From a virus: a stretch of 26,023 nt of DNA. Numbering within the stretch: position 1 is the first letter of the stretch; every line of letters starts with the position of its first letter. The stretch lies in the IMG/VR virus record IMGVR_UViG_3300031994_000473, positions 1-26,023 of that record. The stretch is one strand, 5' to 3'. A program made the translations under genes and the position numbers. The notes under the pieces were generated by a model. That model saw only the letters and a program-made list of their open reading frames with translations, made no database searches and was not told the DNA's origin. Shown piece by piece: positions 1 to 26,023 of the stretch.

Positions 1-126
1 AATCGCGGCATAAAAACAAGAATCGACTCTTCTTTTTTCCATATCAAGAGCAAGCGCAACTTCTTTAGCGGTTGCTCCATTATGTTCTTTAAGATAATTC
101 AAAATGCCGTAACTTATATCAGTCAT
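1..126 (-). CDS. 5' part (42 codons) of a small winged-helix protein gene, a second copy of 25801..26013 cut by the window edge
   Basis: ATG at 124-126 with GAGGAG upstream, 17 nt after the Tal stop. Nt 12-136 are identical to 25899-26023. Nt 1-11 differ at 2 positions: one Ser->Tyr change and one synonymous change. Confidence 0.6.
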   Translation of the reverse strand, partial: MTDISYGILNYLKEHNGATAKEVALALDMEKRRVDSCFYAAI

Positions 127-136
127 AATAATTTTA
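12..136. repeat. Terminal direct repeat, copy A (exact 125 bp; 136 bp with 2 mismatches)
   Basis: Base-by-base comparison with 25899..26023. Positions 1-11 versus 25888-25898 differ at positions 4 and 11. Confidence 0.9.
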
Positions 137-1561: not shown

Positions 1562-4500
1562 TTATCCTGCTACCGTATCTGTTGTATCAATCCAACCCAT
1601 ATTATTAACATATTTCCAGGCTTCATCTTGAATTAAATATGTTTGAGATTCAATTCTATCACCATTTTGATAAGTATGAACTAAGTATGCATCATTAGCT
1701 ATTGGTAATGAATATGCTTTTAATTCATCTTGTGAAACAATATAGGTTCTTGGATTTGCATATGTACCAGTATTTTTATTTGTATCTGTTTTCTTAATCC
1801 AACTATCTCCTGTCCAGTATAAAGTGCCATCAGTTGAATTTTCATATTTTGCAAAAATTGGTTTAACAGTTTCAGATTGTAATGTAATTGGATAAATATC
1901 CAATTTAGGAATCTTATAACTATTTAGGGAAGTTGCAGTATTATGCTGATTTCCTTTTAAAACTACCGTATCTTTTATTTCAGTTAATGTATCTGAATAG
2001 GTTTCAGAAGGTAACAATTCTAATTTATAAGAACGATACCATGCTTTGCCATCAGACCACCATAATCCTTCCACTCCATGTTCCTGATCATTTGTTGTAT
2101 AAAAGATAGGAATAACTATATCCTTATTAAGAGGATTAAATTTAGTAGAGTAAATTGAAGGTTGTTTATAATTATTAGTTCCATTATCTTTAACCTTTGC
2201 AAAATATTTAACATTATTTTTATCATATATCATAACATCATCTAATGATCCTACTGGAGAATCTGATGTATCAATAATTTGATCAAATAAAAATGGTTTA
2301 ATACCTGGGTCTGTTGTCCATGTTCTATATGGATCTTCACCCCTTGGATGTGCAGTATATTCATAAGAACTAGTGTGGTATACAGCTCCAGTAATTAAAT
2401 CTACTAAACAATGTGATCCTAATTTTTTACCATTGAAAATATATCCTTTTGGTAATGGAACAATATATTTTTGTAAGAAATAATCTTTCCAAACTTTAAA
2501 AGCATAAAATACTGGATAGTAGAATCCATGAGCAGAGCTAAAGCCATTTGCAAATATTCCTTGATGATACCAATATACTGGAGAAGGTTCATATATATTA
2601 CTACTAGGTGGTGTATATGAAAATTGACTTTGAGGAATTAAATTACGATTTTCTATAACTGCTCTTTTTGAACTATTAGTATTAGATTTTACAAGTTCAT
2701 CATTAAATTTAAACCAATAGAAACCATCCTAAAGAGGATTAGTGTTTAACTCTAATTTCTAAATTCCATCTATTGCATAGTCATCATGAGTATCTAATTC
2801 ATCACTTAATTTAACACCATAATATCCTGAATGATAATTACTTACGTTATCTTTATAACCTATAACTAAACTAATATCTCTTTTATTTGAAAAATTAGTA
2901 ATTAAAATTTTTTCAAGATTTCGACTATTAGGAAGTAAAAGCTGGCTAAAATTATAAAGAGTGAAAGTAGGATTATCATTATAACCATCTAATCGTGTGA
3001 ATAAAGATCTATAAGAACCGTCTTCACTGGTAAAGTTTGTAGCACAATTAGTTTGTAACTCCCAATCCCACATTCCACTATTTGTTGCACCGGGTGCATT
3101 ACTCCAATTGTCTAAGATCATAGTAGACATTGGAATATAAGAATCTGGAGGTAAATATGCTCTATATTTTCCATAACTTGGAATATATAAAATCCTTTGA
3201 ATTGCTGTGGTAATAATCTCTTCAAAAGTAAAGTAAACATCTTCATTATCATATGAACGAGGATTCCATAAGAATGTTCCATCTTCATATTGTTCTGAAG
3301 GCTTAAAAAGATTTTTATCTACTCCAAAGAAATCCCAAGTTAATCTAATAGGAGTATCTCTATATAAAGTGGGCTTAATTGGTTTTGTATAGTCATTTTC
3401 CATAATCACAGGATGAACTATATTAACATCTTCAATAAGAACGAATCCCCTAGTTGCGGAATCCGCTTCTAACCATACTAGGAAATAAGATTGTCCTTGG
3501 CTATTTACTCTAACTTCCTCGTCTTCAGTAACAAATCTAGTTCCAACAGGATAAGGTCCTTTTCTTCCATCCTCTCTAAAATCACCGTAGGAATATAAAT
3601 AAGTTTCAACTTTAGCAGTTAATAATCCATTATCCGCTTTATATCGTTCATATTTATTACTTGTTTCAATAAAGACATCCCAATCAGGATTCCAGTTGCT
3701 TATGCTACAAGAGAAAGCTGTTCTGCCCACTTCATATTGTTTAAAGCTTCTTTGAGTTGATACTTTAAATGGACCAAAATCAATTAATTTAACATTTCGC
3801 TTTTCAATCCAGCCCTAATCAATTTGATAAAGATTATTTTCAAAATCTAAAAGAGTAACCTCAGTTCCCTCTTCTATTGTATCTAAAACCTAAGATTTAT
3901 CTGCATTATAAATCGAAGAATCTCTTAAAATAATTCCTCTACCATAATAATCTCCAGTAGGAATAATAGAACCATTATGAATAATTTCTAATCCTTCTGG
4001 TAATGAATCTAATCTTGGATAAGTATCTTGACTCATATCGCTAGGATAATTATTTGTTTGACCTAACGCAAAGAATACATATTTTTCTTCAATATATTGA
4101 TTATCTTCTACTTCAACTTTTGATTGAATAGATACCTACTGTTGAGGAGTAATCCCAGAGTAAGTTATAGTAGCTTCTGGCGTTTCTGGCGCAAACCAAA
4201 TTACCTAATCTGTTGTATTTTTAACAATAGGATAATCAAGAGCTAAAGAAGAAGCTCTGGTAATAGTATAATCATCTTCAATATCAATATACCCATCTTC
4301 AGTTTCTAACATATCTGAATTGTCTGGACTAGCACCATAAAACTCAAAACTAGTATTAGCTTCATAGGTTTTAACTAAAGTCTATTTTTCAATATCTTCA
4401 TAAACATTAATTGCGGTGTTAGCTACAGCTAAACCAGTAGCGGTAGATTCTGTAAAGTACCTATCTTTATAATATACAACATTATAAGCATAAATAGTTT

Positions 4501-7500
4501 CTGGATATATAATATCTACATTATGTGCAGCGGTTAATTCTACACGATTAAAATTACCATTATAATTCATTTCGCCAGAATCATGGAAACGTAATTTATA
4601 TTGGTCTATTCCAAAATGATCCCCAAAGAAATCACTGAATAATTTAGACCAGCTATTGATTGTATTCCAATCAAGTTCATCTAAATGAACTACTCTAGCT
4701 TCTAATGCATTATATAATCTACCAGATTGATTAAATGATAAATCTTCTGTTTTAATCCAAGATTGATGTTCTGGACTCCAAGCCCAAAGTCTATCAATAG
4801 TCAATTTAGTAACAGTAATCATAGTTGAATATGGAACTGTAACTAAGTTTTCTGGATTTTCATCATATTCAGGATTCTGCCCTGGGCCAATAGTAGGATG
4901 AGTGTATCCAAGAATAATCCATCCTTTTGGATATTCTTTTAATCTACCCCAACCGCGTTTTTCTTCGATAACAGTATAACGTCCTTTATCTACGATTTCC
5001 GCCAATGTGCTATAAGCACGACCAGGTCCTTTATGTACCGCACAATAGTTAACATCAACATCTACTTGATAAGGAATGAAATAATCTTGTTTTTCATCCT
5101 CATATAATGCGGTATGATAATGATTAATATATTTAATTGCGCCGTTAGGATTTAAGACTCTAGCGTCTAAATCGCAATCTAAATAATTAACATCATCTTC
5201 ATTTAATGTAATTAAATCATCAGAGGCACCGCCGCGATAATAGTTAATATATAATAAATCTGGCTTCTCTTGTGCGGTAAATTCATCATAAATAACAACA
5301 GGTGATGGTGCGTCGATGAAACCTTTAATATCATTATCAATTAATAACTGTTCATTAAAAGCAATTCTACCTGGCTTATAATCTTCAGATGCATATAAAT
5401 CAACATCAATACCAAGATCTTCCAGTGAACTAGCATTTTCTATATCTTTAATGTTATAGAAAATATCTCTGCTACCAACTCTCTTGTTTCCTCTATAATA
5501 TTCAACGGTTTTAGTGAATGTTAATAATTTATAATAAATATTAGCGGTTCCTGCATTAAATATTGTCTTTAATACACTTTTCCCAACAACCTAACTATTT
5601 AAATTCCATGTTCCATATAATTCATCATTATCTAAAGATAATTTATGAGTAGTTGAATTGTACCATAAATTTTCATATCCTTCAAAATCATAATCTACAT
5701 CAAACATTCCGTTTGTATGGAAGTCATCTGGTTTAAAATCATTATATCTTAAAACTTCATAAATAGTTTCATTAGATTCTCTAAACATTACAGGAATATC
5801 AACATAATGATTGCCTAAGAAAGCATTATTTTCATCATAATAATTAATGACAATTTTACCAAATAAAGTCCAGTCATTACAAACATGGAATGGCGCAACC
5901 TAATGTGGCTAAACCTTTTTAGTTTGATTTGTATATGTCCACTGTCTATCCTCAGTGTCAATAGAGGAACTATAAGTTCCACCCTCATTAGCATTACTAA
6001 AGAAAATTTCAGTTACACGATCAAACATACCATTAGCTGGAGCTGTAAAATCATAAATTTTATCACCTTTAGCTACTGGAACTAAATCTCTTACTAATTT
6101 ATCCCTATCCCATATTTTTAAATACCATACTGCCATACGTGCGGGAACAGGGAAAGAATCAACTGGCATACCTTCATAAGCTATTGAAATAGTTTTAGAG
6201 ATATTTTGATAATGCCAACCTTGTTCAGAACTATCTGGTATAATAGTTGTAGACTCTACAGTAATCGAATTCTGGAAGCCAGTTTCATAAGGGTTATTAC
6301 TTAGTAAAACAGATAAACCATGTTGATTGAAGGTTCTTGCTCCAGTTAAAACTCCAGTAACTCGGAAAGGTTTCCAATTAATTTTACCAGTTTCTGGATT
6401 TCTAGTTATACCCAATGTTAAACTTCCTTTAGGTTTACCTCTCCATTCCCATAAATCAGTGTCTTGATTAACTAAATTATGAAATTCTGGATGCATTGAA
6501 TTTGTATAATCATACACTTCTGTATAATTATTTGGAGCATCTAAAACCATAGTTAAAGGATTACCAGCAACAAAACGAGCATGATCAATTGAACAACTAG
6601 TTATTTCTCCAAAAGGTGCGTTTGCTCTAAAATTAACCTCTGCATCTTGTATCATTCCCTTAAATGGTGAATCCTATTGAGAATCTGCGTCAAGAAAACT
6701 TGGATTAATATGTACAGCAGGACTTTTTATGCTATTTTGTGGAACAGGAATTGCACCAAACATTGGATACTAACCATGTCCCTAATTTTTGTCAACAGAA
6801 TAGGTATAGAATAAAGGAACAGATCTTAATTCTTCATCTAGAATTGAAGCTTTTCCTCGCCTCATTCCTCCATGTAATTCCCTCACTGATTCAATTGATC
6901 CATTAAGAGCATACCCATCAGGTGCATAAGGTGTTGCATGACTATTATATGAATGACCGTCCACATGAGTTGGTTGACCTAACTATCCACCATAATCCCA
7001 AAGTGTTGTCATGGTATGTCCAATATATCTAAAATCGCCGTCGTTGTTCTACGCAGCAGCTGTATAAGGTTTAGTTTGTTTTCCTAAATCCTTAATTGTT
7101 TCTTCAAAATTTTGAGCAGGATAATATCCAAAGAATCCTGCAAAATCATTACCCTTAAGTGAATAATGACTAGTTCCACCTATAGATCCTTGATTTAAAC
7201 AATAAGCCTTTATTTCACTTTTAAGCCTACCAATCTATTTAGGAGTATATCCTAAATCTAAATAAGGAGTGATAATATTTGCTTTTGGGTAGAAGGTTTG
7301 TTCCCCAAGTGAATTCCAATATGGAACAGGTAGAGTTCCCCAAGTTCCATGTGGATATCTTCCTGGAACCCATTCATCTCTAGCTATTGCTTCAGTACCA
7401 AAATCTCCTCCTTCAGCTATTTGTGTATATCCTTCAGCAGTATCAAACCAAAGAATCTTACTCGGCCAATCTTCATCATCAGGATCATGCGGCTATTCTT

Positions 7501-10500
7501 TAGTTTCATAAATAATATCTACATGACCTGCTTCAACAAGAGAAGTAAATGTATACCATGCTGTTTCGTCCGCTAAAACACCGCCCCAACAAATAATTGG
7601 TTTGTAAGCATTAAAATATGCATTTGGTAATTCATCAGTTAATTGGAACTGTTCATCATCATGCCAATCATCTACTTGAACTTGCCAATAATTGTTACCG
7701 ATTAAGTTTTCTTCATCCACCTCATCCGTATAATATCTAATTTCAATGCTAAACGGAGCAGGATCATATAAGATTTTATATTCACTCTTTAAAACATCTG
7801 GTGAGTAAAGATTTTCATCTTCAAGATACCATAAATAGTTTAAACCTTCTTTATAGAAACTTACACCAGATATTGCGGATTGCGGTCTGAATTGATTAAA
7901 ATTAATATGTTTTTCAATAAACTCGCCATCTGCAAATTGAGTTTCATCAAGAGATAAGGTAACTTCCCCAACCTTCTCATAAGACTCAAGTTTATTAAGT
8001 GGAGTAATACCAAAGACCTTCCGCCAATAGGTAACCTTAGTTGTATAAACTTGCGGATTCTCAACCTCTGTATATACAATAGTATAAGGTGAGTGTTCTA
8101 AGATACGTCTTAGTGTTACTTTTGTTTCAGGATATTCATAATTAACTTTATAATTATCCGGTTTATATTTTAATAACGGAACTATCTGTCCAAAAGTAGG
8201 AACTGATAAGAAATCTTTTTCAGTAAGTTCAATCACGTCTGATGTGATTAAATTGTTTTCATCATCTGCGCTATCTCTATAATAATTAACAGTAATATTA
8301 TAACTAATACTTTCATAATTAACATGGAATGTAAAGTTATTTACATTATCAAAATTAATTACTCCAATATCAGCTAAATTAACAATCGTACCACTGCCGC
8401 AATAGTTAGGTTGAAAATCATCCATAAATAAATTGGTGCTTTCAATCCAGTTACTATTTTCTGTGAAATCACTACCTCTAAAGTAATAGGTAACTGTATT
8501 AAATAATACGTTATCTTTATAATAATTTACATAACATTTTCCAATCTTATGCTCTGGATCATCATCTACTACATCAGGGTCATCCATGATATTAAAACTA
8601 TTTAATCCAGTTACATCTTCAAAGAAATTCTCTGTAATCTTATCGTAAAGACAATTACTTGGAGCAATCTTATCACCAATCTTATCAAAGAAAGCAACAG
8701 GGACAAAGTCACGAATTAACGTTCCGTCATAATAAATTTTACAACTCTTAATACCAACACCTGCAATACCGCCTTTATAAGAACCGTTATAATCACAAGC
8801 AAATAAATAAAGCGGGAGGTTCATTGGTACATGATTAGATTGAACTAAATGTGTAAAAGTAATAGTACCATAACTGTACCCTTCTCTTGTAGAAGAAGAA
8901 ATACCAGTATTAGAACTAAAACCTTCAGATGCATTTTCTTCAACAATTAATTCTGGTGTGCCGCGGCCAGCAGCTACGTTAAATGTATTAACACCAGTCA
9001 TTTCAGCCTTAGGACCGAATTGAGTATTATTACGATACTTAATATAATAATTACAATCCGCAGATACAGAACCGAATAAATAAGCATCTCCTACATTTAC
9101 ATTGTAAAGAGGTTCAGTGTCAAATACTCTGTAAGTATCTACTAAAACTGTTAATTTACTAACATCATCGCAAGTTACTCCAGTATTGATATAAGCATGA
9201 TTTAATGTCCAGTTTGTATATAAATTCTCAAACTCACCCATATCATTATGTTGTAAGAAAAGAATTCTATGTGGATAGTTAATTCCACTTGGATCAACTG
9301 GTTCACTTTCAGCTGTGTACACAATATCAATAGATTCAACAGCTCTCAATGCAGAGAAATTAACTGGTCCAGTATATTGTACCTCACCATTGCCGCAATA
9401 GCTAGGTTTGAAACCATTAATATCTAATCCTAAATCAGTTAAAGTAGTATTAGTTGAAAAACTTAATACAGTATAATTTAAAGTATCTGATCCAATCCAG
9501 TTCTCATCAGCTACTTCATCTGTATAATATCTAACTGATGTGCTATATTGAGTTGCGGAATATAATACATTATATGTTCCTTGTATATCTTCAAAAGTTA
9601 AAATAGCAGTTGCGGATTCCCCATCTATAATACCATCATTATAATATTCAGGTTTATGAGCATTTAAGTCAAACAATGAAGCTAAAGTAACTCCACCGCC
9701 CACCTGTGATTCTTCTATTGTTATGATAGAAGTATTAATGGTACTATACATTGATGCTAACTCTTGTTTATACTTAATAACAATACTTTTAGTACGAACT
9801 ACATCAACTTCTTTATATGCAATCTTAATTGGTGCATTTGCTAATAATGTAGCTAATTCAACAGCACCTTGATAAGAGTTATCTGCATCAAAAATATATC
9901 CTTCTGGACGTAATAAGTTAATATTAACAATCTGTGCAAGCGCAGGTGAATTTAAGAATTGAGTGGCATTAATTTGAATAGTTCTTGATTCAAGCTTTTC
10001 ATCATCTTGATAATAATCAACAACTAAATCAAAATCTTTTGCACTATAAAATATTTGTAAAACACCCACATCAATTAAATCATCAAAAGAAGTAATTGAA
10101 CCTTGTACGTTAAACAATCTTCCAGAATTATACTCTACAGTTAAATACCTATCTAAATCAATATTAACCGCCGCTAATATATCTTCCGCATTATCATAGC
10201 TAGTTTTATATTTAATTAAATGTGTATGAGTTGTAATTCTACTCCAATTTGGATAAGAACCATAAAAATATTCCACATACACGCGGTTTTCGGTTAATGG
10301 ATAATTAATCTGTACTGACGTTGGTAAAGTTTCAAAAGTAAGTTCTGTATTAGAATCCATGTTAACTACAGTTCCAGAATTATAATACTTTTGAGGTTTA
10401 TATAGGTCTTTATTAATAAAGTCCGTAATTTTTGCTCCGGGAAGAACATCACCTTCGCCGATAATATAAACAGTGGCGTCTTTAAATTCAAATTGACCGC

Positions 10501-11446
10501 TATCATTTTCTGTGTAGAATGTAACAGTTAATTCTTTTTTCTGTTCATTTGCAATATATTCATATCTAACTGTGAGATAAGGTAATGATATAAGACTTGT
10601 AAATGAGAAAACATATGGAGACGCATCGTTGAAATCTGTTAATACTCTAGTACCATTAGGTTTATTTCTTGAAAAATCAATTAAATCACCTAAACTATTT
10701 GCATTATCAACTTGTTCTTTTGTAAAATTAAGAACAGTATCCTCAATCCAAGCATACTCGCCATCTTCTTCTGTTTGTCTATAAAAGCTAACTTGCTTTT
10801 GATACACAATAGGAGCATAGTTAATAATTAAAGTACCAACATCTTTTAAATTAGAAAAAGTTAATTCCTTATTATTAAAATTAGCAATAACTCCACTCTG
10901 AAAATATTCAGGTTGATATTTATTTAATACAATCCCAAGAGAATCAAATGTAGTATTCTCATTAAAATCTGATGCTTTAATCATTACATCATCAGTAGAA
11001 AGTAAGGTATTGCCATTCCTATAATAAAGAACTTTTAATTTAAAATAATCAGTAGCAACAGTATCAGTGGTATATACTTCTGTACCACCTCTTGCGTAAT
11101 CACTCTACAAATTGAATGTTAAAACGAAATTACCATTCTTTAATCTGTTTTGTGATGCGGCGCCCCGCATTGTAACATCAAATATCAAGTTAATATCATC
11201 AAATATGATACTAGCTTTCTTTAACATTGATGTTAACTTACTCATAACTAAGAAGGCTTCAGCTTCATCATCTTTTAATACTAAGAATTTAAGCTGAATA
11301 TTTTTAAATTTATCTTGCTGTCTAATAAAAGTTGGTTGATTATCACCCTCCAACCAGTCTCTTGAAGTTTCAACCGTATTGCTCTGGATAACCCGGTCAT
11401 AAAGCTGAATCCCAAGAGTAGACAGGTCTATGCCATTAATTAGCAT
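1562..11446 (-). CDS. Giant 3,294-aa tail/baseplate adhesin: Dit N-domain fused to >12 MucBP-like repeat modules, three fibre-tip-like modules and several SH3b-like modules; 18 in-frame TAG
   Basis: Track ORFs 11105..11446, 7493..10984, 6782..6964, 5909..6655, 5591..5788, 4382..5005, 2759..3730 and 1562..2233 all lie in one frame. In-frame TAG codons are at 11105, 7493, 7235, 7049, 6983, 6782, 6770, 6674, 5909, 5900, 5591, 4382, 4205, 4136, 3890, 3815, 2759 and 2729. I scanned every inter-ORF gap for TTA/TCA (minus-strand TAA/TGA) in this frame and found none. ATG 11444-11446 follows GAGGAGG, and the gene ends at TAA 1562-1564. The first 113 aa (MLINGIDLSTLGIQLYDRV...FDDINLIFDVTMRGAA...NGNFVLTFNL) resemble the Dit/Sipho_tail N-domain. 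Confidence 0.8.
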
Positions 11447-11646
11447 TAATTACCTCCTCTTCTTTGGATTTCTAATCCAATATGGTTTAATAAGTTATTC
11501 ATTGACTAATCATCTTGCATAGAATAATCATTTATCGGCATTGGAGTTGACTCAATATGCGGTAAACCGCCATTAGAGTTTTGAATGTTTCTTCTGATAT
11601 TCTATTGCATAGCTTGATTAGTATCTCCAATATTTGTGATATTCAT
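11446..11646 (-). CDS. 66-aa protein at the position normally occupied by the tape measure gene; 2 in-frame TAG
   Basis: ATG 11644-11646 follows GAGGGA. TAA 11446-11448 overlaps the giant-gene ATG (TAATG). Translation: MNITNIGDTNQAMQ(TAG)NIRRNIQNSNGGLPHIESTPMPINDYSMQDD(TAG)SMNNLLNHIGLEIQRRGGN. Confidence 0.5.
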
Positions 11647-11647
11647 T

Positions 11648-12193
11648 TTATTCCCTCAAGATTCCAAGATTCTAAAATGTTTTATTTCTTTCTTCTAAAG
11701 AAGCTTTTTTATAGCCGATATCCTATACTAATGTAAGCGGTTCAGCCTAAGAATTAAAAGCTTCTCTAATTGCCATAATCATTATATTTCCTTCTAATTC
11801 TTTTCTTTTCAAGTAACCCTAATAAATGAGATTAGCCTCATGTGGAGAGAGGTTATAAAAATCTTCAATAGACATTCCAACCTCTCCTACCAACACTTTA
11901 CATAGCTAATCAAACTAAAGAGGGTCCATTTGTAAAATATACTATTTAATTTCATCAAATGAACCCTCAATATCGAAAGAATTAAAAAGAGAGAAAAGGA
12001 TTATGCTTAAAGCATCTGGACAAGTCTTGTATACCTATTGCCAGTTGTCCTTCCTGTCAATAGCTAGAAAGAAAAGTTTCTATAAAAGAATCTCCTCGTC
12101 TTTCACATTATATAAAAAATCTTTTAATAGGGTTAAATACTTCAGACCAAATTTGAAGGAATAAATTTGACCATTTATCTCCCTTATTATCAT
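11648..12193 (-). CDS. Tail assembly chaperone-like protein, 181 aa, 9 in-frame TAG (highest density in the window)
   Basis: ATG 12191-12193 overlaps the major-tail TGA (ATGA). TAG at 12080, 12035, 11942, 11915, 11906, 11819, 11747, 11723 and 11672; TAA at 11648-11650. I scanned this frame and found no TAA or TGA. The N-terminus MIIREINGQIYSFKFGLKYLTLLKDFL and the position after the major tail gene fit a gpG-like chaperone. The C-terminal half begins MSIEDFYNLSPHEANLIYQGYLKRKELEG. Confidence 0.55.
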
Positions 12194-12576
12194 TCTAAAG
12201 CGCCAACCCCCAAAAGAGTAATAGAATAAGTATAAGCCTTATTAAATGCGGCAGTGAGTGGCATATTGGTAATTAAAGCTTCGCCCTAATATTGTTTAAA
12301 GTTGTCAGTTAATTTAACCCTGATTTTCTATCCATCCTGAAATGCTTGTTCTAGGGCATCCCATGCTTCCTGATCCTTTATGAACACTCCGCCGCATCTT
12401 AAAGACCAACTTTTTAAGCCCGCAATGTTTTCCTCCCAGTCTCCATGAATCTGATTGGTGATTTTTATAGGAGACATTTGTCTATTTAATATACAGTTCT
12501 ATTGGCCACCAATCACTTTGTCTCCAATGTAAAGAACTGCGTCTACTCCCTTATGCGGAGGTTTAACCATTTTCAT
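12190..12576 (-). CDS. Major tail (tube) protein, TP901-1/phi13-like family, 128 aa, 3 in-frame TAG
   Basis: ATG 12574-12576 follows GGAGG; TGA at 12190-12192. The sequence GVDAVLYIGDKVIGGQ(TAG)NCILNRQMSPIKITNQIHGDWEENIAGLKSWSLRCGGVFIKDQEAWDALEQAF...Y(TAG)GEALITNMPLTAAFNKAYTYSITLLGVGAL follows the Phage_tail_2 pattern (G..W.e...G.k.w.i...G......a...l...., y.G.a.i.s, l.G.G.l). Confidence 0.8.
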
Positions 12577-12967
12577 TTTCAACCTCCTACTCCATTCCAT
12601 TGCAATAGAAAGAGATAGTCAGGACACCATGTTTCCGCATTACTCCTGTAGATTTATCATCTAAAATGCGGAAGGTCTCATTTACATACACTATTCCATC
12701 TATTGCATAGAACTGCTATAATTCATCAAATATTTCTGCTTCCATATCAAGTATCTATTGCTATCCATCGTATTCAGAAAAAATATGTACTTGATATCTA
12801 ACAACACATTGATAATTCTTATTATATCTATCTCTATTTACTGTTGATAATCTAATTTCAATACAAGGAAATTTATCTTGTCTTCTCTTTGGATTATCAA
12901 TAACTTGATAGTTTGCATATTTAGTAGAGAGTATTTCAAATAATTTTGTTTTAATTTTATTTATCAT
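12563..12967 (-). CDS. Tail terminator/tail completion-like protein, 134 aa, 4 in-frame TAG
   Basis: Track ORF 12761..12967 (AAGGAG RBS) continues through TAG at 12761, 12755, 12716 and 12587 to TAA at 12563-12565. It sits directly upstream of the major tail gene, and its size fits DUF3168-like terminators. Confidence 0.5.
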
Positions 12968-12977
12968 AAACTCTCCT

Positions 12978-13616
12978 TTAAATTATTTCAATATAAGAGG
13001 AGGGCGAACCTAGACTAAAAACAGGTCCGGCTTTATCATAGCCAATTTTCTATCCTCCAGAAAGCATATCTGCAAGTATTGAAAAAACTCCCCCAAAAAC
13101 AGCTCCAAAAACACCCGCAAAAAAAGACTAAGCAAAAGTACCGTGACCCATCATTTCACTGGGGTCTTCAAAATCATTTACTAAAATGTCATGTAGTTCA
13201 TCTGCAGCCTCTTGATAAGCAGCGTCAAATTCCGCGGCGGTTTGATCCCAAGCTTGTTCAAGAGCAGGCCCAAAATAAGGTTGAGCCATCATTTTCCAAG
13301 TTCCATATTCAACATATTGAGCATATTCAGTGTCTGCATAGCAAGATATACTCCAATCATCTGCCGATGCAGAAATTGATGAATATAAACGACCAGTGTT
13401 TATAGGCACTAAGTTAGTTGCCGCTTGGTAAAAAGCATCAGCAAATTCCGCAAAAGCGTCACTGTAATCCACTTCTACTGTAACTGTTACTTGTTCATCA
13501 TTTATAAGAGTATTATTTTCGCCGTTTGCATCTGAATCTACTGGCATCAGTGCTGTCCCAGTGACTTCAGTTTGTAAACCTAAATCATCTCCGCTTATAT
13601 ATGCATATAATGCCAT
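12978..13616 (-). CDS. HK97 gp10-like tail/neck component with a TAG-gated hydrophobic C-terminal extension, 212 aa
   Basis: Track ORF 13128..13616 contains NTGRLYSSI...YAQYVEYGTWKMMAQPYFGPALEQAW, the HK97-gp10 family motif. TAG at 13128 and 13050 leads to TAA at 12978-12980, which lies immediately before the next RBS. Confidence 0.65.
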
Positions 13617-13807
13617 TATTCTTCCTCAATATCTTCTATATTTACTTCTATATAATTATCTGGGGTATCCATACTCCCCATCCTGAGAGACGGGGAATAC
13701 AGATGAACCTCAGTAACAACATTATCTTCATTTAATGCGTAATGAGGTTTCTTAAAGTCTAATACCTTACCTTCATCCGCATATATAACTCTATCTCTTA
13801 TTACCAT
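13616..13807 (-). CDS. Small structural-module protein (63 aa), paralog of 13809..14027
   Basis: An internal ATG at 13805-13807 follows GGAGGG, one nt after the upstream TAA. TAA 13616-13618 overlaps the next ATG. It shares Y.ADEGKV.DF...E.HLYS..L..G..D..DNY.EV with its neighbour. Confidence 0.6.
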   Translation of the reverse strand: MVIRDRVIYADEGKVLDFKKPHYALNEDNVVTEVHLYSPSLRMGSMDTPDNYIEVNIEDIEEE

Positions 13808-13808
13808 A

Positions 13809-14027
13809 TTAACCCTCCTGCGTAGGAGCGTCAACTTCTACGTAATTATCGATGCTATCTGTGATGCCTAAGAACAATGTCTTAGAGTAAAGATGTTCTT
13901 GTACTGTTGTTTCTACTCCAGTTTCAGGATCTTTCTCAACAGTGACATGTGTTGATAAATCAGCCCAATCAAATACTTTACCTTCATCCGCATCGTATCT
14001 TTGCACTGTATATTCTTGTGTTTTCAT
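13809..14027 (-). CDS. Small structural-module protein (72 aa), paralog of 13616..13807
   Basis: Intact ORF with AAGAGG RBS and a TAA stop. It carries the paralogous motif RYDADEGKVFDW...EHLYSKTLFLGITDSIDNYVEV. Confidence 0.6.
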   Translation of the reverse strand: MKTQEYTVQRYDADEGKVFDWADLSTHVTVEKDPETGVETTVQEHLYSKTLFLGITDSIDNYVEVDAPTQEG

Positions 14028-14039
14028 GTTTTACCTCTT

Positions 14040-15254
14040 TTATGTTAACGATACTGTCCAACCCTTTGCAGTTGCTACTGCTATTTCTGCGGCAGTGAGG
14101 TCTGCTATTGCTCCTCCATCTGTTGCAGATCCTTTGTTAGTAGCATTTTCAAATGTAATAGTATTAGTACCACCTGCTGTTGCTATATATGCACTAGTAT
14201 CTGGGAGTGAATTAATAGTGTTTACCGCACTATCATGATTATATCTTGAATACTCAGGTAGAGTAGTAAACCACCAATCTTCATTTTTTAATGCTTCATA
14301 ACTTGCTGCATCGGTAACTTCTTTAGTAGTATCAAAATATGTATCCTTACTAAAACCAACAGGAGTAACACCATAATCAGCAAATACTTTAAAATTTTGA
14401 CTTTTATATTCTCTAACTACTGGAGCGTTATTTTCCATTAAAAAAGTTATATCTTTAATGCAATATAAATTAGCACCGGCTGTTCCAAACATATTTGCAG
14501 TTATAGGAGCTACTTGTTGACTTGAATAACCCCTATATAATGGAAGATTTAAACTTGTTAAACTATAATCTTGACCAAAACCTTGAGAAAAATTTAAAAG
14601 GCCATATTGAGATGAATTTGTTACAACAGACCACCAACTGAGATCAGGAATAGTTTTTAATTTATAACAATGTAAAAATGTCTGTTGTGGGGTTTGTTGA
14701 AATTTATTCTGTATCGCAAATAACACATCTGAATTATTTGTTAAAAAATCAAAAAAATTAGATGGAATAGACTATAAAGAACGACAATCATAAAAAGTTC
14801 CATTTGCAGTTAAATTAAACCCAGTCCGAAGATTTGGGTTATTATTTAAATTTAAAGTAATTATAGGTAATTTTTTTACATTACTAGTACGAAAAGAATA
14901 ATTTACCTGTACTGTAACAGATGAAGCATTAGCAGAAATAGTTAAAGGCAAAGTATAACTAGAAAGATCCTACAAACTTGTAGTCTAAGCAATATTACTT
15001 AAATTTGAATCTCCTGTAAAATTTATTTTATTCTTTAATAAATCTTTTAAAGCTATAAAAACTTTACTACCAAATAGATTTGATCCATCAAAGGGAAAAT
15101 TAATAGTAGGAATTTCTGCTCCACCACCGCCTTCAATAGCGGCAATAGCATCAGCCATATCACTAGGATAATAAGTAGTTTGTGTTCCATTTTGTTCTCT
15201 AATAGCATCGGCAATATCAGTAAGCGTGCTATCATTAATTAATACTACACTCAT
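14040..15254 (-). CDS. Fibre/receptor-binding candidate with BspA-type leucine-rich-repeat-like core, 404 aa, 3 in-frame TAG
   Basis: Track ORFs 14985..15254 and 14040..14726 are in one frame and are joined through TAG at 14985, 14970 and 14772. No TAA or TGA occurs in that frame. Motifs: N-terminal LTDIADAIREQNGT...MADAIAAI; Cys-containing repeats (CRSL(TAG)SIPSNFF, FLHCYKLKTIPDLS); C-terminal AAEIAVATAKGWTVSLT. Confidence 0.6.
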
Positions 15255-16921
15255 TAATATTGTACCTCCTCTGCATTAGTAAGATTAACAGAAATGACAC
15301 CATTAACAATGCTAATTCCAGTACCTGCGGTATAAGTAGCTCCTGCCCCATCCTGTCCATCTTGACCATCATATACATTAAAATCAGTATTACGAGAATC
15401 TCCTGTCCCATAACTAAATGCGACATTATGTCCTCCGGTTATCGAAGTTACTGTAACAATAGGTGTGATACCATCTTGTCCTGTTCCACCTCCGCCGCCA
15501 GTTGCGGAAATCACTCCATTAGTAATTTCAATACCAGTTCCCGCTGTATATGTCGTATGTTTAAATAAAGGAATTACTTTATTACTCCATGCGCTATATT
15601 GATTATTATAACCATTATACTAATAAATACGACCATATATATTATCAAGGTCCCGGAAAGAGTCACCAAGACCCAAGAAATAAATAAATAATCTTGTTCT
15701 ATTATTAGAATTTTCATTTGTTCCCCAGCATCTATCTGGGTCTAAATCAAAATACGCATATCTTATCGTTGTGTAGTTGGTCGTTATTGTAGTAGAGTTA
15801 GGCAAAGTCTCCCAAGAAAAAGCTGTGCTTCCATTATAGGAAGAACTAGTTGGAACTCCAACACTTGGGAGACATACATATCCATAAGTATTTACAGGTA
15901 TATTTTCCAATTTTGATGGGAAAAACATTCCAGTTTTAGGAATAGCATCTCTCAAATCAGTCTCTGAATAATCAAAATAAGTTAAATTATTAAAAATACC
16001 TGGTTTAATATCTCCACCTGTTCCATCTTGACCATCCATTACATCAAAATCAGTATTTCTTTGATCACCAGTACCATAATTAAATGCTATGTTGTGACCA
16101 CCAGTAATTGAAGTTACTGTTACTGTTGGAGTAATACCATCATCTCCATCGGTACCATTTGTACCATTTGTCCCTGCGGGACCTTGCTCTCCTTGAGGTC
16201 CAGTCGCACCTGTTGCACCATCTTGACCGTTTGTTAAATCAACTTCAGTAGTGCCAGCAATATCAGTTACCGCTAAATGATAACCATTACTTGTTTGTGT
16301 TACAACAACAGAGGGTGAAAAACCATTATTACCAGTATCTCCCTTTTCACCTTTTGGACCCTGAACACCTTGCGGGCCGGTCTAACCTGTATCTCCTTTT
16401 GGTCCCGTATCACCAGTATCCCCTTTTGGACCTTGAATACCTTGTGGACCTTGCTATCCTTGAGGACCAGTTTCACCCTGTGGTCCTTGTACCCCTTGAA
16501 TACCCTGAGGTCCTTGAGCTCCGGTTGCACCAGTGTCACCCTTATCTCCCTTGTCACCTTTATCTCCCTTAAGAGAAGCTTTCTGCTCAGGAGTTAAAGA
16601 TTCAAAAGTAACAGCACCATCTTCACCTTTTGGTCCTGCTTCACCGGGATCTCCTTTATCACCCTTATCACCTTTTGGTCCTTGAGGTCCAGTCTATCCT
16701 TGCGGTCCCCGCAATCCTTGGTTACCATCATCACCTTTTGGTCCTTTTAATGAAGCTAACCACTGTGCTTCAGTCCCGCTAAATCCGTTTTCAACAGCAA
16801 CTTCGTAAGCACTTAATCCATTGCCTACGACTCTAATAAACCCCAGTTCTTCGCTATTCTCTGCCTGGGTTGGGGTAATATTCTTTAACGAATAAAGAGT
16901 TGCGGTAATATCATTTGCCAT
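15254..16921 (-). CDS. Collagen-like (Gly-X-Y) fibre protein with an internally duplicated beta-module, 555 aa, 4 in-frame TAG
   Basis: Track ORFs 16694..16921, 15620..16039 and 15254..15514 share one frame. TAG at 16694, 16454, 16382 and 15620; TAA at 15254-15256. Long GXY runs are present (GPKGDKGDKGDPGEAGPKGEDG..., GATGAQGPQGIQGVQGPQGETGPQG...). Confidence 0.8.
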
Positions 16922-17874: not shown

Positions 17875-18786
17875 TTAAGGATTTGTAGTTCCGCCTTGAG
17901 TACCGCCACCTTCGGTACCTCCGCCTTGAGTTCCACCTTCGGTACCTCCGCCTTGAGTTCCACCTTCGGTACCTCCGCCTTGAGTTCCACCACCAGCAGC
18001 GGCAGCACCAGTTGTAATCTTAACAACCTTAGTAGCATCAGTAAGAGCAACGAGGGCTACTTTACGAGCAAATACTTTATTGTTACGGTAGTTGGCATCT
18101 CTTTCCTGTTCAATTTCAGAACCTTTCTTAATGAAAAGAGTAACTGCTTCAGCGTTAGCAAGGAATGCAGTATTTTCAGGAACTGCCTTAGAAACAATTA
18201 CAGGAACACCACATACTGTTCCAATGTAACCAGTTCTTACGAAATCTTCAACATATTTAAGGTCATCACCAAGAGCCTTTCTAACTTTGGCTTTGTCACC
18301 TGTGTTGATAAGAATGAAATAACCTGTTTCATCTTCAAGATCTAATTTAGCAATAGCATCAACAACAGCATCAAATGTAAGTCCTGTTGCGGAAGCGTCA
18401 TATGTAATAGTAGCCTTACCAAATTCCGCAATCGCTTTTCTTGTAAAGTCATTTGTCATGCGGGTTGCAAGTCCATAAAGACCAGCATCTACTACCATAG
18501 GATCTTTCATTTCTTGTTCATCGTAGTATTGGAATCTACCCTGAGTAACACCTACAACGTAGTCCACATCAGTGAAGCTAACTTCGATGTCATCTGTATT
18601 ACCTTCACCCATTTCAAGGTCTTCAACATCACCAGTAGAAGTGTAAGTATGAATAGTCTTAATCATACCTGCATTTTCTGTAAGTGAAGTATCTACTGTC
18701 ATATAAGATTGAAGATTAACATTAGTAGTAAGTAAATCTTCAAGTTTATTTTCTAATACAAAATTTTCATATACTTTATGAGCCAT
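17875..18786 (-). CDS. Major capsid protein (HK97-fold, N4-gp56-like family of Firmicute phages) with a Gly/Thr/Gln/Glu-rich repeat tail; no TAG
   Basis: Intact 303-aa ORF after the scaffold gene, with AAGGAG RBS and a TAA stop. Its position, size and sequence style (…GRFQYYDEQEMKDPMVVDAG…FIKKGSEIEQERDANYRNNKVFARKVALVAL) fit a major capsid protein. Confidence 0.75.
   Translation of the reverse strand: MAHKVYENFVLENKLEDLLTTNVNLQSYMTVDTSLTENAGMIKTIHTYTSTGDVEDLEMGEGNTDDIEVSFTDVDYVVGVTQGRFQYYDEQEMKDPMVVDAGLYGLATRMTNDFTRKAIAEFGKATITYDASATGLTFDAVVDAIAKLDLEDETGYFILINTGDKAKVRKALGDDLKYVEDFVRTGYIGTVCGVPVIVSKAVPENTAFLANAEAVTLFIKKGSEIEQERDANYRNNKVFARKVALVALTDATKVVKITTGAAAAGGGTQGGGTEGGTQGGGTEGGTQGGGTEGGGTQGGTTNP
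17891..17991. repeat. 27-bp tandem repeat (~3.6 copies) encoding GTEGGTQGG units at the capsid protein C-terminus
   Basis: ccgccttgagttccaccttcggtacct is repeated head to tail. The first copy carries a 3-nt insertion. The repeat forms a GC-rich island in an AT-rich genome. Confidence 0.9.
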
Positions 18787-22716: not shown

Positions 22717-23961
22717 TTATAGTCCTAATGCCCCTTTTGACATTGTTTGTAACTTTTTGCGGTAAGTACCACATTGTGTGCCGTATCTAGCTGCATCTAT
22801 CAAGTGACAAAATGCGTCAATGGGTTTATCGGTCCAATTATCAAACTTATCTTTATCAAAAGCATAATTAGAAAATTCTATAATCGCATTTTCACAAGAG
22901 GGATGAATCAATATCTCATACTCTTGAAGCTTGCGGATACCCTACATAATAGAGCCTTTGCCTTTCTTTGCGGGCTTCACTCTTAATATATCTAATTTAC
23001 CTAGTTCCGCAATTGAGCGTGGCTAAGCGCTGTCCGCATAAATTAAACACTTTTGATACCCACGATACTTAATCCATGCCGCCACCTATTCAAGAGTCTT
23101 CTGTGACTGATAAAACTAATCACAAAAATATATTCTTTTGTTCTCTTCATCTACTCGCATTACCGCAATAGCAGTAGGATCTTGCCAACCAAAGTCTAAT
23201 CCTATCCAAAGCGGAAAGTCAAGCTTCTTCACATCATATTGCTCAACCCGCCAGTTATCAAATACTAATCCCTATGATACTCCCCATTCCCCATCACCTT
23301 CGATGCGGAAACGTCTAGGATATTTAACTTTCATATCTTCAAAGACTTTAATATCATCCTCACCTAACCACTCGTTGCAGCGGTAGGTCGTGGTCATCGC
23401 TAATTTATTCTAGTCATTTGGCGTATCAAAGAAACGTTTTTTAAGCCAAATTTTATCACTCCAAGGGTTAAATGTAAATATTATTTGTTTAAAATAACCA
23501 GGAGGAAGCTAGCCCCTCAACGATAAGTCAATTTTATTAAAGTCTTCCTATGATGTTATTTGATAAGCCTATTCAATCCAACAGAGATTCAAATAACCAA
23601 CAGGAGCAGTAATAGAAGTAATTGAAAGTGGATTATCACATCCTCTAAAATAAATCTTTTGTCCAGTAGGCTAGTAAGTAGCTTCGAGCGGAGACACCGT
23701 GAATTTCCACAAATGACCCACTCCCAAGTTCTAAGCAGCCCACTTTAATTGTTTCCAGGTTGAATCTCGCTGCGTATTAAAGACTTGCCGCACCACCAAA
23801 CAATTGGATAGCGGATATTGCATCATTAAAAAAATAATCTTCATTGCGGCGGTCGTCGATTTCTTACTTCCACGAGATCCTTTCACCAATAGATAACGAC
23901 CCTTAAAGTTCCAAAATGCGTTATAGCCTTTACCTATCTTTTCACTTAGTCTAATTTCCAT
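22717..23961 (-). CDS. terL: Terminase large subunit, PBSX/Terminase_3-like, 414 aa, 11 in-frame TAG
   Basis: ATG 23959-23961 follows GGAGGA. The whole gene was translated by hand. TAG at 23731, 23671, 23569, 23548, 23509, 23410, 23272, 23116, 23086, 23023 and 22942; TAA at 22717-22719. Motifs: VKGSRGSKKST (Walker A-like), YFRGCDNP, LCWIE(TAG)A (Walker B), FTFNP, ADSA(TAG)PRSIAEL, KKGKGSIM(TAG)GI, HLIDAARYG. Confidence 0.9.
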
Positions 23962-24385
23962 CTGCGTCCTCCGGCAGATCATTTACAATAACAACTTGTT
24001 CTTTAACATTGGCTTCAATAGTAGACTTAGAAGATTGAACACCTAATTGCTTTTGTAATAAATCTAATGCCTTTAACTGAACCTGCGGAGTGTAGACCGT
24101 ATCGCCCTTCTCAGCGAAACCCATTTCTATTAATTTTCGAGCTACATTTTCTGCCCCAAAACCCAATGATTCAAGTATTTCTTGCTCTCTAATTCTCTTA
24201 TATTCTTGAACTTTTGGGTTTCTTAACACTTGAGATGCATTCTTACTATTCTTAATAGGTTCCCCTTTATCTCCATAAACTGCAATATAAGCAGCAACAG
24301 GATCATAAGGTAATGTAGAAATTAACCTTTCCACAAAAGCAAGTTGTTGTGGTTGTAAATTAGGTTTCTCTTTAAGTTCGACCAT
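23951..24385 (-). CDS. terS: Terminase small subunit, 144 aa; no internal TAG, ends at TAG (TGA 3 codons later)
   Basis: The second ATG (24383-24385) has AGGAGG 7 nt upstream. The sequence QQLAFVERLISTLPYDPVAAYIAVYGDKG...ASQVLRNPKVQEYK fits small terminases of the Terminase_2 type. The gene lies directly upstream of terL and overlaps it. Confidence 0.75.
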   Translation of the reverse strand: MVELKEKPNLQPQQLAFVERLISTLPYDPVAAYIAVYGDKGEPIKNSKNASQVLRNPKVQEYKRIREQEILESLGFGAENVARKLIEMGFAEKGDTVYTPQVQLKALDLLQKQLGVQSSKSTIEANVKEQVVIVNDLPEDADGN

Positions 24386-24435
24386 AGTAAAACCTCCTTT
24401 CATATAAATATGAAAATTTCTTCAATAAAATTATA

Positions 24436-24612
24436 TTACTTTGTCTCAACAATAGAAAAAGGAACAGAGGCGGGCGGTGGGTCAGTGAAATTTATGCGGT
24501 TCCCGCGTGTCTCGTTTGTAGATACATGCATTTTATGTAAGATTTCTCTAGCTTCATTTTCTATTGTTTCTGTTTTCCAAAGCTCATCTTCAAAGTAGTT
24601 TGTATCCTGCAT
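24436..24612 (-). CDS. Hypothetical 58-aa protein (below the ORF-track threshold)
   Basis: ATG 24610-24612 with a weak GGGA RBS; TAA at 24436-24438. Translation: MQDTNYFEDELWKTETIENEAREILHKMHVSTNETRGNRINFTDPPPASVPFSIVETK. It fills an otherwise non-coding gap upstream of terS. Confidence 0.35.
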   Translation of the reverse strand: MQDTNYFEDELWKTETIENEAREILHKMHVSTNETRGNRINFTDPPPASVPFSIVETK

Positions 24613-24641
24613 ATCCCTAATCCTATTTTCTTTTGTTGCAA

Positions 24642-24723
24642 GGGTTTGGGGGCGAAGCCCACAAATCCCGCGCAGATTATATAGTATTTCAATGCGTGCC
24701 CGAAGGGCTAAGCTTTGAAATAC
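24642..24723. other. Two GC-rich imperfect hairpins, each with a GAA/UUC triloop
   Basis: In 24642-24669, gggtttgggggc-gaa-gcccacaaatccc forms about 12 bp with one bulge and one mismatch. In 24684-24723, the outer stem gtatttcaa/ttgaaatac encloses gccc-gaa-gggc. There is no flanking U/T tract. Confidence 0.6.
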
Positions 24724-24740
24724 GTTATTTTATATATTGT

Positions 24741-24829
24741 ATTATTATATTATGTGAGTTATTTTTTGCTCACTTGTGAGAAATTTTTTACGCACATGTG
24801 AGAAAAATTTTGCTCACATGTGAGAAATT
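24741..24829. repeat. Iteron/operator array: three full CTCAC(A/T)TGTGAG palindromes at ~22-bp spacing plus two flanking half-sites, separated by A3T6-like spacers
   Basis: tatgTGAGttatttttt GCTCACTTGTGAGaaatttttta CGCACATGTGAGaaaaatttt GCTCACATGTGAGaaatttttt GCTCAC. The array starts 18 nt after the stop of the wHTH gene 24848..25213. An AT-only block at 24711-24742 lies next to it. Confidence 0.85.
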
Positions 24830-24847
24830 TTTTGCTCACCCAATCTT

Positions 24848-25213: not shown

Positions 25214-25266
25214 AGCAATACTCCTTATCTCTTTTCTACAATAACTTTAATAATAATATCGTGTTC

Positions 25267-25464: not shown

Positions 25465-25486
25465 ATATCAAAATTCCTTCCTATTG

Positions 25487-25516
25487 TTTATAAAAATCTG
25501 ACCAAAAATTCTACAA
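25487..25516 (-). promoter_or_regulatory. Weak candidate promoter (TTGTAG-18-TATAAA) just upstream of the Cro-like gene
   Basis: On the minus strand, -35 lies at 25511-25516 and -10 at 25487-25492. The match to consensus is poor. Confidence 0.25.
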
Positions 25517-25519
25517 AAA

Positions 25520-25795: not shown

Positions 25796-25800
25796 ATTTT

Positions 25801-26013: not shown

Positions 26014-26023
26014 AATAATTTTA
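25899..26023. repeat. Terminal direct repeat, copy B
   Basis: Identical to 12..136. Confidence 0.9.

Follow-up and report, generated by a model that had tools for sequence, protein, structure and literature searches.

A putative multivalent tail-tip adhesin built on a split Dit protein occupies 38% of a phage genome predicted to read TAG as glutamate

A single reading frame of 3,294 codons in a complete 25.9-kb phage genome

We examined the virus record IMGVR_UViG_3300031994_000473 over its whole length of 26,023 nucleotides (hereafter the window), where a single giant open reading frame (ORF) encodes what appears to be an enlarged form of the tail protein Dit (distal tail protein). The giant ORF lies on the minus strand, as do all the genes and domains described below, and occupies exactly positions 1562–11446, with its ATG at 11446–11444 and its TAA at 1564–1562. 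It contains 3,294 sense codons, 18 in-frame TAG codons, and not one in-frame TAA or TGA, and its product is a 377-kDa protein with a pI of 4.5. A 136-bp direct repeat at the termini of the window (1–136 versus 25888–26023; 134 of 136 positions identical) shows it to be a closed genome with a length of 25,887 bp. The giant gene thus takes up 38.2% of this genome, and it follows a 181-aa fused G–T tail assembly chaperone and a 66-aa ORF. A preliminary description of this DNA, made from the sequence alone, had likewise proposed a 3,294-aa ORF covering about 38% of the genome downstream of a tail-chaperone region. The two mismatches in the terminal repeat fall near its start and may be population variants or assembly-end errors.

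When translated with table 11, the gene breaks into 19 pieces, the largest of 1,203 codons, and it also contains repeated modules; both features would be expected if the long ORF were an artefact, produced either by misassembly of repeats or by reading through separate genes that end in TAG or use internal starts. We consider such an artefact extremely improbable. The 19 pieces all share one frame, and a run of 3,294 codons without TAA or TGA at 34% G+C excludes chance. More than 227 protein clusters of homologues (2,832–3,256 aa, all on contigs of ≤26.7 kb) retain the undivided ORF, and 15 fully sequenced relatives carry a giant ORF of 2,844–3,257 codons. In four of these 15 (L013, L015, L020, and L024; L numbers designate related genomes, loci, and contigs) the ORF lacks any in-frame TAG and is intact under the standard code, so that its existence does not depend on how TAG is read. 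Within the gene, no repeat at the DNA level exceeds 29 nt, because its modules are only 15–31% identical as protein, and the independent contig L004, which covers the 5′ 4 kb of the gene, matches window positions 7450–14343 at 98.4%. The assembly chimera against which the preliminary description had cautioned is therefore unlikely, and the internal ribosome-binding site and start pairs that it had named as a sign of separate proteins did not appear either: no Shine–Dalgarno (SD)-plus-start pair within the giant gene is common to several genomes. In addition, TAG occurs at conserved Glu positions of the large terminase subunit (TerL) and of other genes, and must be decoded there.

An exhaustive search of 1.84 billion representatives recovered only about eight full-length clusters at 50% identity. 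Across the family, residues 1–1330, 1650–2330, and 3000–3294 are conserved, whereas residues 1330–1650 and 2330–3000 are variable. Neither a genome megablast nor a tblastn search with the Dit N-terminal domain gave a match in the deposited phage collection, and a scan of bacterial and archaeal genome contigs for the giant-ORF family confirmed no relative and hence gave no host clue.

The two domains of Dit are encoded by separate ORFs

Dit proteins form a ring that follows the last ring of the tail tube and precedes the Tal trimer, and in a normal Dit a short linker leads from the ring domain to a galectin-like domain. Residues 1–131 of the giant protein (11054–11446) correspond to the ring domain. 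They align by blastp with residues 1–135 of the normal 238-aa Dit of the classical relative L030 at 43% identity (E 1e-24), and are 40–43% identical to the N-terminal halves of the 233–238-aa Dits of L030–L032. Profile matches within the family are weak, with 3 of 17 N-termini matching PF05709 (best E 0.004) and others phrog_202 (5e-5) and phrog_33; the window's own N-terminal domain falls below threshold in Pfam and PHROGs, and an N-terminal profile had no match among PDB sequences.

The galectin-like domain is found on a different polypeptide. An ORF of 122 codons (1176–1544) starts at its own SD and ATG, 17 nt past the TAA of the giant ORF, and matches the C-terminal Dit domain only: PF22768 (SPP1_Dit) above cut-off with an E of 3e-10, and positions 170–278 of phrog_33. 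Its residues 22–122 align with residues 136–238 of the L030 Dit (E 7e-9), and it shares the C-terminal motif Y[KQ]PRYI with the Dits of L030–L032. When residues 1–128 of the giant protein are artificially fused to the 122-aa ORF, the product aligns end to end with the L030 Dit (E 5e-31). The preliminary description, in which the protein starts with a Dit-like ring, is accordingly right about residues 1–131, but these make up only half a Dit; the galectin-like domain that a classical Dit carries on the same chain is absent from the giant polypeptide.

This split is conserved. In all 15 complete genomes the TAA of the giant ORF is followed by an 11–24-nt spacer with an SD and then by a separately started ORF for the Dit C-terminal domain (Dit-C) of 115–134 aa, and the frame offset between the two ORFs is 0, 1, or 2. 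A conserved split with a varying offset is not what a frameshift or readthrough product would give. We therefore rejected a readthrough or frameshift that joins the giant ORF to Dit-C, given the varying offsets, the separate SD in every genome, and additional in-frame stops. The gene also occupies the place of a Dit gene, since the order major tail protein (MTP), chaperone, 66-aa tape measure relic, giant ORF, Dit-C ORF, and Tal is the same in the relatives. On these alignments, the giant gene is a split Dit with approximately 3,160 extra residues.

The neighboring tail genes are reduced

L030, whose TerL is 74% identical to that of the window, encodes a full tail set composed of MTP, G, T, a 1,041-aa tape measure protein (TMP), the 238-aa Dit, a 713-aa Tal, and a 784-aa protein. 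In the window, the place of the TMP is taken by the 66-aa ORF (11446–11646), which matches the last 63 residues of the L030 TMP (residues 978–1040 of 1,041; blastp E 1e-4). Most family genomes have an ORF of 51–96 aa with a conserved end motif at this site, and a profile of these ORFs matches the L032 and L030 TMPs at their extreme C-termini only; the terminal motif is common to the ORFs and these TMPs. The 66-aa ORF is thus a relic of the C-terminus of a tape measure. Upstream of it, the 181-aa chaperone (11648–12193) combines the G and T parts in one frame, so that no frameshift is needed; its residues 102–178 match the T ORF of L030 (E 1e-16), and a weak similarity to Phage_TAC_12 was also detected. 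Downstream of Dit-C, the 339-aa Tal (144–1163; PF06605, PF18994) retains just the structural N-terminal domain, equivalent to residues 32–344 of the 713-aa Tal of L030. Both the Tal extension and the 784-aa downstream protein of L030 are missing. The truncated Tal and the tape measure relic had gone unremarked in the preliminary description.

Tail length usually follows a rule of approximately 1.5 Å per tape measure residue. Applied to the 66-aa relic, this rule predicts a tail of about 10 nm, and the virion would accordingly be expected to have a very short tail.

Repeats, lectin-like domains, and an SH3b pair follow the ring domain

The residues that follow the ring domain are organized into arrays of a small repeat separated by larger domains. 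Chunked phmmer self-comparison and an iterated hidden Markov model (HMM) identified a module of about 80 aa in 11 full and approximately five partial copies, which agrees with the earlier count of more than 12 divergent modules of ~80–95 aa. Pairwise phmmer E values between copies reach 1e-12. A first array of seven tandem copies spans residues 133–718 (9293–11050), a second of four copies, the third of them degenerate, covers residues 967–1318 (7493–8548), and a third of about three divergent copies occupies residues 1861–2120 (5087–5866), where the evidence comes from HMM matches and from the DSSP assignment of model 2 (residues 1977–2053). The first two arrays are also represented in an AlphaFold model of residues 633–1048 (model 1; mean predicted local distance difference test (pLDDT) score 86.7, predicted template-modeling score 0.81), in which small β-rich repeats flank a jelly roll. 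By DSSP, the repeat at residues 633–716 has the strand and helix order of a β-grasp. The best whole-chain match of model 1 in the PDB is the Lactococcus adhesin YwfG (Foldseek E 3e-4), in which an L-type lectin is combined with a MucBP domain and a Mub β-grasp repeat (PMC9815576); Pfam MucBP gave no match in the giant protein. Among the 1.84 billion representatives, the ~80-aa repeats recur in pilus-tip adhesins of Gram-positive bacteria, proteins whose N-termini carry VWA and GBS104-type tip-pilin domains. A repeat profile searched against the PDB matched CapZ alpha only (E 4e-4), which we judged to be a chance match of β-strands.

The jelly roll in model 1 forms lectin-like domain 1 (Lec1; residues 719–962, 8561–9292). 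Its Foldseek matches in the PDB comprise the galectin-like CGL3, neurexin LNS2, laminin LG, and sialidase lectin domains, and those in BFVD are phage proteins labeled ConA-like or LamG-like (E down to 7e-11). Lec1 is the best-conserved part of the giant-protein family and contains invariant residues, and a relative of the domain, P0162, carries Laminin_G_3. Lec2 (residues 1592–1860, 5867–6673) is homologous to Lec1, with a phmmer E of 2e-10 and an hhalign probability of 98% (E 1e-13, 161 columns). Lec3 (residues 2756–3045, 2312–3181) is more divergent and family-variable, as judged from homologue coverage, and hhalign relates it to Lec2 at 91% (E 1e-6) and to Lec1 at 75%. These are the three fibre-tip-like modules of the preliminary description; they are homologous to one another, and the modeled one adopts a lectin fold often seen in tail proteins of phages. 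From the model, the Lec1 fold is of the ConA/LamG/galectin type, a carbohydrate-binding fold.

Residues 2126–2254 (4685–5071) are predicted to form two tandem SH3b domains of the cell-wall-binding type. They were recognized in a second AlphaFold model (model 2; residues 1953–2354, pLDDT 75), which has low-confidence linkers, for example at residues 2188–2200. Foldseek matched the pair at a probability of 1.00 to 2krs (an SH3 domain of C. perfringens; TM score 0.69, root-mean-square deviation 1.6 Å), 2kt8, 9ovi, 6biq, and 4krt, and further to YrvJ, the phiSM101 endolysin, NlpC/P60 SH3b pairs, the teichoic-acid-binding domain of SlpA, lysostaphin, and ALE-1. A PHROG amidase C-terminal domain matches residues 2114–2184 (E 2.7e-6). 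Pfam SH3 profiles gave no match at residues 2126–2254 or in the C-terminal region, and the sole SH3_3 match, at residues 2517–2552, is sub-threshold (16–18 bits versus a cut-off of 27). Several SH3b-like modules had been proposed, of which these two stand on structural grounds while the other suspected copies were not confirmed.

Three further regions separate or follow these domains. Residues 1319–1591 (6674–7492) vary across the family, being present in ~25–90% of homologues depending on position, and correspond to the ~280-aa stretch at 6660–7490 that had been left without an assignment; hhalign relates them to Lec1 at 29%. The lineage-specific region at residues 2330–2700 (3347–4459) has only 3–6 close homologues over most of its length and compares with SH3b at an hhalign probability of 4%. 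The Trp-rich C-terminal region (residues 3046–3294, 1565–2311) is conserved in 80–98% of homologues and looks SH3-like in its sequence pattern, with an hhalign probability to SH3b of 19%. A segment-wise Pfam scan gave no match for residues 1319–1591 or 3046–3294, and a close homologue had no match among PDB sequences at E values up to 10. No catalytic domain, protease domain, or conserved cleavage motif was detected in the giant protein with Pfam and PHROGs.

TAG is predicted to be read as glutamate

The preliminary description referred to the table-15 translation, in which TAG encodes Gln. In the window, 98 in-frame TAG codons are distributed over almost every gene, including those for TerL, the small terminase subunit (TerS), and an XRE-like regulator; they are absent from the major capsid protein (MCP), the scaffold, and two helix-turn-helix (HTH) genes, and amount to 15.6% of Glu codons. 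In the giant ORF, their first bases are at 11107, 7495, 7237, 7051, 6985, 6784, 6772, 6676, 5911, 5902, 5593, 4384, 4207, 4138, 3892, 3817, 2761, and 2731, all of which we read as Glu. To assign the codon we used a Codetta-style approach in which TAG is masked and amino acid profiles are built from the non-TAG codons of other genomes only (21 ortholog alignments, 30 loci). Over 74 TAG sites in the window, the log-odds are +56.9 for Glu and −32.9 for Gln. The same procedure correctly recovered the masked control codons GAG (Glu), CAG (Gln), AAG (Lys), GAC (Asp), TAC (Tyr), and TTG (Leu).

Individual positions give the same picture. A relative with almost no TAG shows Glu or Asp codons at most of the positions where the giant gene has TAG, and two of these TAG sites are Glu in 117–118 of 120 homologues; codons 1318 (7495–7493) and 1404 (7237–7235) are examples of TAG in the giant ORF. 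In TerL (22717–23982), alignment with four standard-code outgroups that include the cultured phages Javan202 and SA97 places Glu opposite TAG in 22 of 44 cells and Gln in none of the 44. The TerL sites include the Walker B, FCDE, and SAEP motifs, acidic positions at which most or all outgroups have Glu. Pyrrolysine was rejected as the meaning of TAG, given its occurrence at invariant catalytic Glu positions. By these alignments, table 15 is the wrong code for this genome: TAG is a sense codon read as Glu and not Gln, and a table-15 translation places 18 wrong residues in the giant protein.

The code also varies within the family. TAG fits Glu in the closest relatives of the window (L001, L004, and L007–L011), and opposite TAG the clade-mates have 90 Glu and 30 Gln codons; in the sister clade the counts are 129 Gln and 76 Glu. 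The sister clade clearly fits TAG as Gln, for example with a log-odds of +36.8 for L018, and the related loci L002, L014, L018, L021, and L025 are those with TAG as Gln. L022 gives a mixed Gln and Glu signal, and L016 has TGA at invariant Trp sites, including codon 31 of its giant ORF. A single phage family with the same gene order thus appears to occupy four coding states: the standard code, TAG as Gln, TAG as Glu, and TGA as Trp.

ARAGORN and Rfam found no tRNA or suppressor tRNA gene in any of the 23 genomes or loci (the window and 22 related ones). A phage that brings no tRNA, yet has TAG in nearly all of its genes, must depend on the host or another element for decoding. Most Bacillota use an indirect pathway to Gln-tRNA. 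In such a host, an amber suppressor tRNA could be charged with Glu by a non-discriminating glutamyl-tRNA synthetase; suppressor Glu-tRNA that escapes amidation by GatCAB would insert Glu, and the amidated form would insert Gln. The literature that we searched contains no TAG-to-Glu reassignment in phages or bacteria, and the only reassignments reported by Borges et al. (bioRxiv 10.1101/2021.08.26.457843) are those of TAG to Gln and of TGA to Trp. If peptide masses bear it out, TAG as Glu would be a new natural code, and it would cast doubt on the view that recoded phages need suppressors of their own and that only Gln and Trp are involved. In practical terms, pipelines that use table 15 would mistranslate such genomes, at 98 residues in the window, among them catalytic glutamates of TerL.

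A model for the giant Dit and its alternatives

We consider it likely that the giant gene encodes a greatly enlarged, split Dit that equips the tail tip with six long arms binding sugars and the cell wall. Dit proteins form hexameric rings (ring architecture and evolved Dits are reviewed in PMC7291167). Six copies of residues 1–131 would build such a ring, with the galectin-like domain supplied separately from its own ribosome-binding site just downstream. Beyond the ring, the ~3,160 residues of each copy would form one arm, a string of approximately 25–30 mostly β-rich domains in the order seven repeats, lectin-like domain, four repeats, variable region and second lectin-like domain, about three repeats, two SH3b domains, lineage-specific region, third lectin-like domain, and Trp-rich end. 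In the elongated crystal fragment of YwfG, residues 28–511 span 180 Å (PMC9815576), and scaling from this fragment gives an arm of up to ~100 nm if fully extended. Each particle would display about 18 lectin-like and at least 12 SH3b domains, an arrangement suited to multivalent binding of wall glycopolymers and peptidoglycan. The conserved N-terminal 1,330 residues may act as a stalk, and the variable residues 1330–1650 and 2330–3000 may set host range. Among deposited TerL proteins, the nearest all belong to siphophages of Bacillota, and the target would be a Gram-positive (Bacillota) host. Given the relic tape measure, the truncated Tal, and the lost receptor-binding protein, the arms probably replace a long tail in reaching and holding the cell. 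We infer this function from the folds and the genomic context.

A number of observations weigh against this model. Family matches at the level of sequence are almost absent in Pfam, PHROGs, and the PDB, and the domain assignments draw on two AlphaFold models and modest Foldseek matches (E 3e-4 to 1e-2 for the lectin in the PDB). The ~80-aa repeat is compatible with a β-grasp from its DSSP pattern and the whole-chain match to YwfG, and about 900 residues (1319–1591, 2330–2700, and 3046–3294) lie outside any assigned domain. The tape measure relic is identified from E values of 1e-4 to 4e-4, a common terminal motif, and gene position, and L022, L027, and L028 have ORFs of 134–189 aa at that site, so tail length may vary. 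A 555-aa collagen-like fibre or a 404-aa protein encoded elsewhere in the genome could be the primary receptor binder, and the giant protein could be cleaved post-translationally into smaller pieces.

Apart from the artefact considered above, three other readings of the gene can be set against the giant Dit arm. The ORF lies directly after the MTP and G–T chaperone genes, and the genome has no other gene of tape measure size, as would suit a tape measure protein or its replacement that sets tail length inside the tube. That is highly implausible, since the N-terminus is instead homologous to the Dit ring domain, both modeled segments are β-rich and globular without the long helices of a tape measure, neither Pfam nor PHROGs gave a tape measure match, and the tape measure C-terminal motif resides in the separate 66-aa ORF upstream; in L030, moreover, the homologous domain follows a true tape measure of 1,041 aa. 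It is also conceivable, if unlikely, that the product is a single polyprotein, cleaved by itself or by a protease, and that the arm is not one Dit-anchored chain. Very large structural polyproteins are often processed, and model confidence is low at linkers (residues 2188–2200 and elsewhere). The lack of a protease domain or conserved cleavage motif in the Pfam and PHROG scans argues otherwise, as does the collinear domain order, which all homologues keep throughout their first 1,330 residues and which fits a tethered stalk.

A protein anchored to the Dit ring might also serve mainly for something other than adsorption, such as retention in a niche (mucus, plant fibre, or other bacteria) or wall degradation by a hidden enzyme. 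A niche-holding role has been proposed for Ig-like capsid decorations. In its architecture the arm is closest to bacterial adhesins for mucus and yeast mannan and to pilus tips; the genome encodes a collagen-like fibre as well but no recognized lysin or holin, and about 900 residues of the giant protein are unassigned. We nevertheless think this improbable: SH3b pairs of this kind are typical bacterial cell-wall-binding modules, the truncation of Tal and the loss of the L030-type receptor-binding protein leave the tail tip with no other obvious host binder, and no catalytic domain was detected with Pfam and PHROGs. We give an even chance to the combined proposition that the giant gene is readable only because this clade, in a family of four coding states, decodes TAG as Glu with no suppressor of its own and that the phage is also a siphovirus turned stubby-tailed, in which six ~100-nm arms replace the tail.

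To our knowledge, in no tailed double-stranded DNA phage does a single structural gene take up close to 38% of the genome, and all described Dits fall far short of 3,294 aa. This lineage seems to have given up the tape measure, Tal extension, and receptor-binding protein in exchange for a giant Dit arm, and it offers a natural experiment on tail architecture; with the textbook set preserved in the close relative L030, this evolutionary re-engineering of tail length and reach is directly testable. The modules that the arm has in common with Gram-positive surface adhesins suggest an exchange of modules between host and phage, and with their conserved and variable zones they constitute a catalogue of cell-wall-binding domains.

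Relationship to known Dits, adhesins, and recoded phages

Classical Dits such as SPP1 gp19.1, TP901-1 Dit, p2 ORF15, and the 233–238-aa proteins of L030–L032 combine a ring and a C-terminal domain that are homologous to the two ORFs of the window. They do so in one chain of ~240 aa, whereas the window has a split pair of 3,294 and 122 aa.

The preliminary description had suggested a comparison with evolved Dits, which occur in siphophages of lactococci, Lactobacillus, and streptococci (such as J-1, the 936 group, and S. thermophilus cos and pac phages). There, as in the window, the Dit ring is a platform for extra modules (PMC7291167). The carbohydrate-binding modules (CBMs) of evolved Dits help adsorption to Gram-positive walls, and the gene is next to Tal, again as in the window. 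In evolved Dits, one or two CBMs, frequently BppA-type, sit in loops of the galectin domain, all within one polypeptide (PMC7291167). In the window, ~3,160 residues are added after the ring domain and before the stop, and the galectin-like domain is intact and separate. The modules are β-rich repeats, ConA/LamG-like lectins, and SH3b domains, and the tape measure is a relic. The giant protein is an extreme variant of the evolved-Dit idea that fails the strict definition, because its extra residues follow the ring domain and not the galectin loops and because the protein is split.

The plan of the arm, a lectin jelly roll with a stalk of small β-rich repeats, is that of YwfG and Msa (L-type lectin, MucBP, and Mub repeats) and of the GBS104/RrgA-type pilus-tip adhesins. 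Unlike these Gram-positive adhesins, the window protein has no signal peptide, LPXTG anchor, or VWA domain and is anchored by a Dit ring, and sequence similarity to them is seen in the repeats only. The two tandem folds at residues 2126–2254 likewise resemble the SH3b pairs of phiSM101 Psm, lysostaphin/ALE-1, YrvJ, and NlpC/P60 proteins. In contrast to the lysin pairs, that of the window has no attached catalytic domain, lies in the middle of a predicted virion protein, and scores below threshold for Pfam SH3_3.

Gut phages that use code 15 (the Lak, crAss-like, Garnet, and Amethyst phages as well as Topaz; Borges et al.; Peters et al., PMC9523058) have a low G+C content and TAG as a sense codon in structural genes, like the window, and their code varies between close relatives as it does in the window's family. 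The window's clade differs from them in reading TAG as Glu rather than Gln, in having no suppressor tRNA, and in using TAG in almost every gene.

Other genes of the window

With TAG as a sense codon, the genes of the window are tightly packed and all end in TAA or TGA. From PHROGs and Pfam profile matches, the genes run in the order TerS, TerL, a small membrane protein, portal, minor head protein, HNH, scaffold, MCP, and adaptor; then three unknown proteins, the 555-aa collagen-like fibre protein, the 404-aa unknown protein, Neck1, tail terminator, and MTP; and finally the 181-aa chaperone, the 66-aa ORF, the giant ORF, the 122-aa ORF, the 339-aa Tal N-terminal domain, and three small HTH proteins. 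The relatives have the same layout. No tape measure, lysin, holin, replication enzyme, or integrase was recognized in the window with PHROGs and Pfam, and no tRNA with ARAGORN and Rfam. For a complete 25.9-kb genome without recognizable lysis or replication genes, dependence on a helper is possible. The three small HTH ORFs lie at 24848–25213, 25225–25464, and 25801–26013, one of them with weak RepL/HTH_36 similarity. Two non-coding gaps of 340–445 nt (24403–24848 and 25464–25801) might contain an origin.

The 555-aa fibre protein (15254–16921) has collagen repeats and duplicated Ig-like segments, and its gene adjoins that of the 404-aa unknown protein (14040–15254). Both lie between head–tail connector and neck genes, an unusual site for fibres, and the two proteins may form head or neck fibres and a second adhesion system. 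The homologue of Neck1/tail-completion proteins (12978–13616) has an extra C-terminal stretch, residues 128–212, with a Gly-rich hydrophobic segment FFAGVFGAVFGGVFSILADMLSGG that resembles membrane-active segments of tape measure and ejection proteins. The Neck1 counterpart of L030 that aligned with it is just 108 aa long and matches residues 68–124 of the window protein. The MCP (17875–18786) ends in a tandem repeat rich in Gly, Thr, Gln, and Glu (GGGTQGGGTEGGTQGGGTEGG...), which may be a flexible surface decoration.

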